Below are positions 6,078 to 6,811 of a DNA stretch of 12,148 bases, in pieces. Under the pieces are notes generated by a model. The model saw only the letters and a list, made by a program, of their open reading frames with translations, was not told the origin of the DNA and made no database searches. The translations under genes were made by a program, and so were the position numbers. This DNA comes from a virus, in IMG/VR virus record IMGVR_UViG_3300035501_000268; one strand, written 5' to 3'. Position 1 is the first letter of the stretch. Every line of letters begins with the position of its first letter.

Positions 6078-6150
6078 ATACTTGGGCAAAGCATCTTCAT
6101 CATTCTTCCTTATTCTTTATATATAAATAGAAAATAAAGGAGGTATTTTT

Positions 6151-6792
6151 ATGGGATATATTTATAAAATTACAAATCTAGCAAATGGGAAAAGTTATAT
6201 AGGAAAGACCGAAAGAAGCATTAAAGTTCGATGGAGAGAACATCTCCGTTTAAGCCGATTAAATTATTAGCTTCCTCTTTATAGAGCTTTTTTAAAATAT
6301 GGTACTGATAGTTTTTCAGTTGAATAGATTGAAGAATGTGACTCAGCTATTTTAGACGAACGAGAAATATATTGGATTGCTTATTATGACTCATATAGAA
6401 AAGGATATAATTGTACTGAGGGCGGCGAAGGCGGCATAAAAACTTATCAAGAAGATATTGATATTATAATCTAGCGATACTCACAAGGAGAACGATTAGA
6501 TAAACTATGTAAAGAATATCATCATGATTATAATAGCTTAAAAAATCGTTTAATAGAACATGGCGTAATTATAGATTCTCAAGCAGGTCCTAAAAAATTA
6601 AGTAAAAAAGTTTATGCTTTAGACCCTGTTTCTAAACAATGCGTTGCTAGTTATGATTCAATTTCTGAGGCTAGTAGAGCTTTATGTTAGCCGGAAAAAA
6701 ATCCTCGCGCTATCGCAAATCATATTAGCAAACAAAAAAATACTAATAACATTTATCATGGTTTTATTTGGACAACAAATCTTGACTCTTAA
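6151..6792 (+). CDS. free-standing GIY-YIG homing endonuclease with a C-terminal NUMOD-like DNA-binding helix, 213 aa; four in-frame TAG codons (6268-6270, 6325-6327, 6472-6474, 6688-6690)
   Basis: Perfect SD AAGGAGG; ATG 6151. N-terminus MGYIYKITNLANGKSYIGKTERSIKVRWREH is the canonical GIY-x10-YIG motif. Reading through the TAGs gives ...SRLNY*LPLYRAFLKYGTDSFSVE*IEECDSAILDEREIYWIAYYDSYRKGYNCTEGG... and a C-terminus ...KKVYALDPVSKQCVASYDSISEASRAL*...HGFIWTT, the latter a NUMOD1-like motif. Ends at TAA 6790-6792. In the supplied track it appears only as fragments. Confidence 0.88.
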
Positions 6793-6811
6793 AGAAAAAA
6801 TATGATATAAT
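6782..6811 (+). promoter_or_regulatory. sigma70-like promoter: -35 TTGACT, 18-nt spacer, extended -10 TGaTATAAT; overlaps the GIY-YIG stop codon
   Basis: Consensus elements. Serves the membrane-protein pair downstream. Confidence 0.55.

Follow-up and report, generated by a model that had tools for sequence, protein, structure and literature searches.

A probable free-standing GIY-YIG homing endonuclease gene with four in-frame TAG codons, predicted to be read as glutamine, in a large phage

A stretch of viral DNA of 12,148 nucleotides (IMG/VR record IMGVR_UViG_3300035501_000268; the whole stretch is called the window hereafter) was analysed around an open reading frame (ORF) of the GIY-YIG type. 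We consider it probable that this ORF is a functional, free-standing GIY-YIG homing endonuclease gene of the I-TevI/Seg type, carried by a large phage in which TAG would be read as Gln. A first-pass annotation, made from the letters of the sequence alone, had already proposed a free-standing gene of the homing endonuclease type, and database matches and the intergenic position of the ORF bear this out. When TAG is translated as Gln, the product matches PF01541 (GIY-YIG) with 35.2 bits, as compared to a Pfam cut-off of 22.6, and PHROG 314 'homing endonuclease' at 2e-27, and it is matched by the catalytic domain of I-TevI (PDB 1LN0/1MK0) with E=3e-6 as a single sequence and 2e-12 in a profile search. 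The ORF is placed between the stop codon of a nucleotidyltransferase (NTase) gene, at 6077, and the next promoter. An Rfam-type scan gave no match to an intron model near 6151-6792, and the gene is a separate ORF with its own Shine-Dalgarno sequence (SD). As judged from sequence and a structural model, the ORF conforms to a GIY-YIG homing endonuclease in its catalytic domain, catalytic residues and catalytic fold, and its context, its distribution and the apparent conversion of its flanks assign it to the free-standing class.

The catalytic residues Y5, Y16, R27, H31, E72 and N87 of the GIY-YIG protein correspond by alignment to Y6, Y17, R27, H31, E75 and N90 of I-TevI, and are unchanged throughout 31 homologues in one set and 48 in another. 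Structural comparison was carried out on an AlphaFold2 model of P0001, a database protein that is 94% identical to the window protein and stands in for it; the DNA of this orthologue comes from three Sequence Read Archive runs (loci L106, L107 and L108). The model has a predicted local distance difference test (pLDDT) score of 85.5 and superposes on 1MK0/1LN0 with a target-normalised template modelling (TM) score of 0.83-0.85 and a root mean square deviation of 1.6-2.2 Å. On the basis of the model, the protein would consist of a catalytic domain (residues ~1-90), a linker, a three-helix module (~100-136) and a C-terminal beta-beta-alpha-alpha-beta module (~154-208). The modules at 100-136 and 154-208 are compact and are joined through low-confidence linkers. 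A search with the model gave, for these C-terminal modules, weak fold matches only, to small helix-turn-helix or DNA-binding proteins, and a Pfam scan found no NUMOD or IENR domain in the protein at E <= 0.01.

The reading frame contains four in-frame TAG codons (Table 1), as the first-pass annotation had counted; neither TAA nor TGA interrupts it. An independent assembly (L104, JGI 3300035502) is 99.96% identical to the window over 5528-10299, with no gaps, and since it reproduces the locus, the TAGs are not read errors. A suppressor tRNA gene with anticodon CUA lies 5.3 kb upstream of the GIY-YIG gene in the same window. Its product would have a U1.C72 mismatch, G2-C71, G3-C70, G10, the discriminator G73 and an encoded CCA; an unpaired 1:72, G2-C71, G3-C70, G10 and G73 are marks of tRNA-Gln in established tRNA-identity work. 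Directly upstream of this gene lies the best promoter match of the window, the only one that scores 12/12. A pattern search for the suppressor tRNA in IMG/VR gave no match, and a second tRNA(CUA) is found in a relative (L111) at 1953-2027.

The identity of the residue that replaces TAG was examined by aligning 60 members of the family, taken from phage contigs and containing 75 TAGs in all. Gln is the residue most enriched opposite TAG (3.9-fold), and in 8 loci the conserved YIGQT motif is spelled YIG-TAG-T. The window contains a second endonuclease ORF, of the HNH type, inside a group I intron. All 7 in-frame stops of the two endonuclease ORFs are TAG, which has a chance probability of about 6e-6 considering that TAG represents 17-19% of the possible one-step nonsense mutations in both of them, and no ORF of the window ends in TAG. 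These observations indicate that the in-frame TAGs of the GIY-YIG gene are Gln codons, presumably decoded by the phage's own tRNA(CUA), and the phage has the sequence features expected of a TAG-to-Gln recoded phage (genetic code 15).

With TAG as Gln the ORF is intact, and it is under strong purifying selection over its full length. The window gene and its orthologue in L106 differ by 38 synonymous and 14 non-synonymous changes and by no indel. The ratio of non-synonymous to synonymous substitution rates (dN/dS) is 0.074 over the whole gene, with 0.079 in codons 1-95 and 0.070 in codons 96-213; the last value indicates that selection acts on the part of the protein downstream of TAGs.

The distribution of TAG among the genes of this lineage was then considered. 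In the window, in-frame TAG is confined to the GIY-YIG ORF (4) and to the intronic HNH ORF (3), and the other ORFs have 0 TAG in 3025 codons, which include 109 CAA/CAG codons (Fisher p = 5e-7). In the closest lineage, L111, represented by a 20.8-kb slice of a 139.6-kb contig, TAGs are present in an HNH ORF (6), in a CxCxCG/EFDGxQH-type endonuclease (5), in the GIY-YIG gene (3) and in one 110-aa ORF (5), and are absent from ~4440 other codons, endolysin included. In a more distant relative (L019), every TAG-bearing ORF belongs to homing endonuclease families. When the lineage was pooled, endonuclease ORFs had 21 TAGs in 1133 codons (~18 per 1000) as compared to 9 in ~9015 (~1 per 1000) in the others; these counts refer to a sample of ~37 kb and are not statistics over complete genomes. 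Within this sample, TAG is absent from endolysin and structural-looking ORFs. The same richness of ~18 per 1000 codons recurs in at least three unrelated endonuclease families: GIY-YIG, HNH and CxCxCG/EFDGxQH.

The last of these families shows repeated CxCxCG motifs and a C-terminal FDF...EFDGxQH nuclease motif, and corresponds to PHROG 559/9084. Its loci are L116 3609-4397, L019 7526-8332 and 12084 to the locus end, and L106 106-1005, and its members in relatives are TAG-rich in every case (2-7 TAGs).

A strict rule according to which only homing endonucleases use TAG was rejected. An ORF for a PIN domain joined to a PhoH-like ATPase (PIN-PhoH), with 4 in-frame TAGs, is present at 5237-6070 of L110, a contig whose positions 1-1626 are 100% identical to window 10523-12148 and which adds 4.4 kb past the right end of the window, so that an ordinary gene of the same phage is also recoded; the JGI annotation divides this ORF into pieces ending at TAG. 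In more distant relatives, TAGs also occur within a tail-fibre-like ORF and a 532-aa ORF without known function. A crude count over all fetched loci gave a TAG excess in endonucleases of just 2.6-fold, in which the non-endonuclease class is inflated by spurious ORFs.

As to the consequences for expression, full-length protein would need four successive suppression events, with a yield approximately proportional to the fourth power of the suppression efficiency, and products stopped at codons 40, 59 or 108 would be devoid of the C-terminal, putatively DNA-binding modules. Expression would therefore be tied to the phage tRNA(CUA), and, in line with a proposal made for recoded phages, the TAGs may hold the nuclease at a low level or delay it. 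The first-pass annotation had expected translation to be throttled both by read-through transcription and by the TAGs. The dependence on read-through is supported, while the view of the TAGs as a mere brake is not, being these, in the presence of the phage tRNA(CUA), Gln sense codons.

It is quite possible, in our estimate only somewhat short of an even chance, that the TAGs have no regulatory role. In this case AT-biased C-to-T drift would have changed CAG to TAG where incomplete suppression is tolerated, and the excess in endonuclease genes would reflect weak selection on expression level. This explanation agrees with a genome G+C of ~30-35%, with the one TAG/CAG swap between close orthologues, with the TAGs found outside endonucleases, in the phage's own PIN-PhoH gene and, among relatives, in tail-fibre-like genes and genes without known function, and with a conservation of TAG positions that is no greater than expected at dS 0.38. 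It accounts less well for the difference between ~18 and ~1 TAG per 1000 codons, for the repetition of the pattern in three unrelated families, and for the analogous enrichment of TGA in Agate phages, which is statistically significant (10.1101/2021.08.26.457843). That amber codons and tRNA(CUA) are mainly a containment or timing switch for selfish nucleases in this lineage appears to us unlikely. If such a switch did exist, production of the nucleases would be limited to the places and times of strong suppression, and transfer to a genome without suppressor would silence them.

The site occupied by the GIY-YIG gene is the junction of the NTase gene and, ancestrally, a metallophosphatase gene. 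The endonuclease gene follows NTase in the window, in L106/L111/L112 (NTase 79% identical over the compared region), in L019 (57-61%) and in L008-L015 (53-59%). The junction is empty, with NTase abutting or overlapping the next gene and no endonuclease, in L114, L117, L090, L004, L001 and L093. In L114, NTase overlaps the metallophosphatase gene by 8 nt, and this empty allele shares its JGI sample with L104 and L110. The first-pass annotation had seen in this gene a natural target-site pair for the study of intron-less homing, and indeed both empty and occupied NTase-phosphatase alleles exist, one empty allele being present in the same metagenome sample. In L116 the junction is occupied by an unrelated endonuclease of the CxCxCG/EFDGxQH type, with 2 TAGs. 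The GIY-bearing lineages do not form a monophyletic group on the NTase tree, where GIY-less lineages fall among them.

The comparison of the window with L106 reveals a block that is younger than its surroundings. Sliding identity is 55-85% in the gene of a major-vault-protein-like (MVP) protein and 65-66% in the 5' half of NTase, climbs from 71% to 89% along the 3' half of NTase, and is 88-94% in the intergenic region, the GIY-YIG gene and the 6782 promoter; collinear homology stops at 6864. The proportion of synonymous differences (pS) breaks in the same way, being 0.63 in the MVP gene, 0.83 at 5315-5581, 0.32 at 5582-5848, 0.45 in the C-terminal part of NTase and 0.30 in the GIY-YIG gene. 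The identity gradient and the break in pS together indicate that ~1.3 kb centred on the GIY-YIG gene was exchanged after the backbones diverged. The gene was thus exchanged between lineages, with ~570 bp of upstream and ~70 bp of downstream flank, more recently than the backbone divergence, and this pattern is consistent with that expected from homing with co-conversion. An ancient, strictly vertical gene was rejected on account of the patchy distribution and of a GIY-YIG block younger than the backbone. We propose that the enzyme would cut GIY-less alleles near the NTase junction and spread by recombinational repair with co-conversion of the flanks (intronless homing).

A nuclease that has been domesticated and no longer homes, being kept for a benefit to the phage such as the exclusion of co-infecting relatives or an I-TevI-like regulation, through DNA binding, of the overlapped promoter, appears quite improbable. 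The strong purifying selection, the position kept over deep divergence and the overlap of the coding sequence with a promoter would suit it, and there are precedents, since I-TevI also acts as a repressor and marker exclusion in T4 is brought about by seg genes (PMC2988022). Nevertheless, the gene is patchy on the NTase tree, another endonuclease family is found at the same site, and the co-conversion-like gradient is a prediction of active mobility. In any case, domestication and mobility of this nuclease are not mutually exclusive.

No -35/-10 pair belonging to the GIY-YIG gene was found by promoter scan and cassette alignment, in agreement with the first-pass annotation, which had also described, correctly, a half-copy of the conserved leader with its SD upstream of the gene. 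This half-leader ends with the SD AAGGAGG, 7 nt before the ATG. Its 12-mer ATAGAAAATAAA is found unchanged in the leaders of two cassettes, those at 5031 and 11977; the window contains it 3 times as compared to 0.66 expected, and 7 out of 200 shuffles reach three, so that the excess is modest. The alignment of half-leader and cassette fails at the -10 hexamer (TTATAT vs. TATAAT), and the promoter scan found no -35. The window contains seven cassettes of the form TTGAyT-N17/18-TATAAT-ATATATAGAAA, at 725, 2531, 5031, 6782, 7660, 10639 and 11977, most of which follow a terminator hairpin. A scan found no terminator hairpin of the type preceding most other cassettes between 5031 and 7630. The GIY-YIG gene, without a promoter of its own and with a strong SD, thus lies at the end of an operon begun at 5031, and would be transcribed by read-through from it.

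At the other end of the gene, the TAA lies 2 nt past the -35 of the next promoter and therefore in its spacer, as had been noticed before, and the -35 is contained within the last sense codons; the same overlap is found in L106. Such an arrangement would disfavour a clean loss of the gene.

A cassette of the form TTGAtT-N17-TGnTATAAT followed by ATATATAGAAA is kept across the whole phage clade (the window, L019, L090, L093, L094, L001), despite a protein identity of 50-65%. A T4-late-promoter-like TATAAATA at 6122-6129 was rejected, because the 94% orthologue has TATACAAATA at this place and L019 lacks the motif. In L019 the SD can also pair with an upstream pyrimidine run (z -1.7 to -2.5), in a register different from that of the hairpin predicted in the window. 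In L008-L015 the GIY-YIG gene has no SD of its own, and ~60 nt upstream of its start (e.g., L008 5940-6000) the sequence AAGGAGG-N10-ATG-TAA places a stop right after a start; this minimal ORF may represent a different translational control. Rfam also gave a weak match to CRISPR-DR47 at 12017-12053 of the window (24.3 bits, the gathering score being 39; E = 0.85); it overlaps the 11977 leader and in all likelihood arises by chance.

The first-pass annotation had explained the half-leader by a recent insertion of the endonuclease gene between a gene end and a promoter, with duplication or capture of half of the leader cassette. The resemblance of the 26 nt upstream of the gene to the 3' half of the cassette, the lack of that half in the cassette downstream, and a block younger than the backbone relative to L106 are what such an event would leave. 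However, the intergenic region upstream of the gene, half-leader included, is present with 4 substitutions in L106/L107/L108, and can be aligned, in a diverged version, with that of L019, the only contig recovered by a pattern search for this leader in IMG/VR, where NTase is ~57-61% identical. The half-leader is therefore inherited, or travels, together with the gene, and does not owe its origin to a recent insertion. Moreover, the cassette downstream of the gene in L106 is complete, with its own leader (TATAATATATTAAAATGGTAAAGGGAG-N8-ATG; leader form AAAGGGAG-N8-ATG), and drives an 83-aa ORF, and the 6782 cassette is leaderless in the window because of a separate 45-nt deletion in the window lineage. 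The order leader half, gene, promoter half is also not what the splitting of a single cassette would produce, the junction is occupied in lineages with NTases only 53-61% identical, and the G+C of the gene (~0.28-0.32) is the same as that of its surroundings. The first-pass annotation had set against its own proposal a gene at a conserved, ancient position with its own promoter. The position is conserved across deep relatives and an own promoter is absent, and we regard the leader capture as very improbable.

The genes around the endonuclease gene are less well preserved. NTase is intact (269 aa) in L106/L111 and frameshifted in the window, where it has also been substituted at positions that are invariant among the homologues; L104, assembled separately, shows the same frameshift. 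Downstream, window 6825-6864 corresponds to L111 11602-11641 and window 6855-6969 to L111 14542-14654, with the deletion of ~2.9 kb in between. This deletion removed an NlpC/P60-SH3 endolysin and three other ORFs of L111, and joined the stub of the 83-aa ORF to the last ~90 nt of the metallophosphatase gene, of which window 6865-6950 is the 3' remnant. With the NTase frameshift and the two flanking deletions, the window genome is a variant in which the endonuclease gene is intact and its surroundings are scarred by deletion. Cleavage by the endonuclease itself could have left the two flanking microhomology deletions as scars.

That the ORF itself is a decaying pseudogene, with the TAGs as four nonsense mutations, is scarcely credible: homing endonuclease genes often degenerate once fixed, the adjacent NTase has lost its frame and the ORF is broken up by gene callers that use code 11, but dN/dS is 0.07 on both sides of the TAGs, TAG alone interrupts the frame, with neither TAA/TGA nor frameshift, the cognate suppressor tRNA is in the same window, the TAG positions are kept in the orthologue, with one swapped for CAG, and the catalytic residues are intact.

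Several points weigh against a functional, mobile endonuclease with regulatory TAGs. The designation of the C-terminal modules as a putative DNA-binding part depends on the model and on weak fold matches. The frameshifted NTase and the two flanking deletions may mean that this genome is defective or in decay. The similarity gradient could also be produced by ordinary homologous recombination in which no nuclease takes part. A dispensable gene may simply tolerate CAG-to-TAG changes when a suppressor is available, and the conservation of three of the four TAGs at dS 0.38 is compatible with neutrality. Finally, the hairpin that might sequester the SD in the window is no better than shuffled sequences (z = 0.1).

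Table 1. Coordinates of the features discussed (positions in the window; L numbers denote related loci)
Feature	Position	Strand	Details
Suppressor tRNA, anticodon CUA, Gln-like	787..860	+	ARAGORN; Rfam tRNA model 50.7 bits; comparison with tRNA-Gln
Best promoter match in the window	725..753	+	TTGACA-17-TGnTATAAT; 12/12; upstream of the suppressor tRNA
Operon promoter cassette (5091 ORF, NTase, GIY-YIG)	5031..5059	+	Most likely transcribes the GIY-YIG gene
NTase gene, frameshifted	5315..6077	+	Net 14-nt deletion at ~5847-5850 with respect to L106/L107
Block shared with the L106/L111 lineage, younger than the backbone	5582..6864	+	NTase 3' half, intergenic region, GIY-YIG gene, promoter, first 50 nt beyond
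Predicted weak hairpin	6104..6145	+	CUUCCUUAUU pairs with SD region; possible SD sequestration; -10.7 kcal/mol
Half-leader, 3' part of the promoter-cassette consensus	6118..6143	+	Reads TATATATAAATAGAAAATAAAGGAGG; without functional -10/-35 pair
GIY-YIG homing endonuclease ORF (predicted)	6151..6792	+	ATG 6151 to TAA 6790-6792; 213 codons; 4 TAG read as Gln
TAG codon 40	6268..6270	+	Also TAG in L106/L107/L108; N and Q commonest in the family column
TAG codon 59	6325..6327	+	CAG (Gln) in L106/L107/L108; one T/C difference
TAG codon 108	6472..6474	+	TAG in L106-L108; E in the L008 group and L016-L018; Q in L019
TAG codon 180, within the C-terminal module	6688..6690	+	TAG in L106-L108
Promoter of the next unit	6782..6811	+	TTGACT 6782-6787; 18-nt spacer; TGnTATAAT ending at 6811; 11/12 match
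45-nt deletion site	6824..6825	+	Took SD, start codon and 9 codons of the ORF driven by the 6782 promoter in relatives
Junction of the ~2.9-kb deletion with respect to L111	6855..6864	+	10-nt microhomology

With respect to known systems, the predicted protein shares with I-TevI of the T4 td intron (1LN0, 1MK0) the catalytic fold (TM 0.85, ~30% identity over ~90 residues), the Tyr/Tyr/Arg/His/Glu/Asn catalytic set and, according to the model, a catalytic domain connected by a flexible linker to small C-terminal modules. Unlike I-TevI, the window gene is not intron-encoded, needs amber suppression, and encodes C-terminal modules without sequence match to the DNA-binding domain of I-TevI. It also differs in that neither a late promoter nor a significant SD-sequestering hairpin was detected by promoter scan and fold z-score; hairpins of this kind are those of I-TevI, segB and mobE, with which that of the window was compared.

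The genomic arrangement is closer to that of the T4 Seg/Mob endonucleases. In T4, segC, segF, segG, mobA and mobC-E are promoter-less cassettes that depend on upstream promoters, and downstream promoters are embedded in the endonuclease gene, favouring its retention (PMC2988022). The window gene is likewise a promoter-less cassette joined to an upstream operon, as is segG upstream of gene 32 (PMC2988022), and contains the promoter of the downstream gene in its coding sequence. It occupies an intergenic site between conserved genes, where it is present or absent among relatives, and its flanking markers show, as a sequence pattern, what would be co-conversion. It differs from Seg/Mob in that its phage group comprises 100-190 kb low-G+C gut or rumen phages with sigma-70-like cassettes, in the TAG-to-Gln recoding, and in that homing is deduced from sequence.

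Endonuclease genes enriched in a reassigned stop codon have been described in Agate phages, where a family of intron endonucleases is preferentially TGA-recoded and the in-frame stops were proposed to delay its production (Borges et al., 10.1101/2021.08.26.457843). The principle of gating by stop codons is therefore already known. The Agate group I intron endonuclease resembles the window gene in this enrichment, and is different in that the window has TAG to Gln instead of TGA to Trp and its GIY-YIG gene is free-standing, although the HNH ORF with 3 TAGs is intron-encoded. As in other code-15 phages (crAss-like and others; PMC9523058, PMC10607447), in-frame TAG in conserved genes is accompanied by a phage tRNA(CUA), and TAG would be read as Gln; in contrast to these, the TAGs of the window lineage are concentrated in endonuclease genes in the ~37 kb sampled.

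The locus lies within known categories: it illustrates cleanly phenomena that had already been described and does not constitute a new kind of element. Its value is that of a natural case, well documented, in which the empty, the occupied and the alternatively occupied allele are all available. It would offer a system for intron-less homing outside T4, since occupied and empty alleles are found in one sample, a third lineage has another endonuclease, and a co-conversion-like gradient is present. It is also a compact case of TAG as Gln, in which a suppressor tRNA, conserved TAGs, a TAG/CAG swap and purifying selection beyond the TAGs come together. Standard-code annotation fragments the gene (JGI reports a 39-aa piece) and would wrongly score it as dead. 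If the excess of TAG in selfish nuclease genes were true genome-wide, it would support stop-codon reassignment as a scheduler or restraint of harmful products in phages.

A few other features of the window deserve mention. A tRNA-Leu(UAA) gene at 1003-1971 is interrupted by an 884-nt group I intron (1038-1921), which matches Rfam RF00028 with 58.9 bits at 1694-1892 and carries the HNH endonuclease ORF (1100-1708) with its 3 in-frame TAGs. Joining 1003-1037 to 1922-1971 restores a tRNA-Leu(UAA) recognised by ARAGORN. The intron is inserted between U34 and A35, the classic cyanobacterial and plastid tRNA-Leu site, and L111 has the same tRNA-Leu without intron.

Positions 2604-4991 encode a 795-aa protein that Pfam matches to the shoulder and repeat domains of the Major Vault Protein (1.5e-17 and 1e-7). 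An exact look-up did not find it on record, and its sole matches in the phage collection are unannotated 'uncultured phage' records of 462-735 kb, with 38-40% identity; the whole window gave no match to INPHARED phages by megablast. The region formed by window 7962-11988 and L110 2029-3457 encodes a DEDD exonuclease, an RNA ligase, a calcineurin-like phosphoesterase, a NADAR domain and a KTI12/AAA_33 kinase-like protein. Taken with NTase and the tRNA genes, this cluster of RNA-repair type points to a possible module for tRNA repair or counter-defence.

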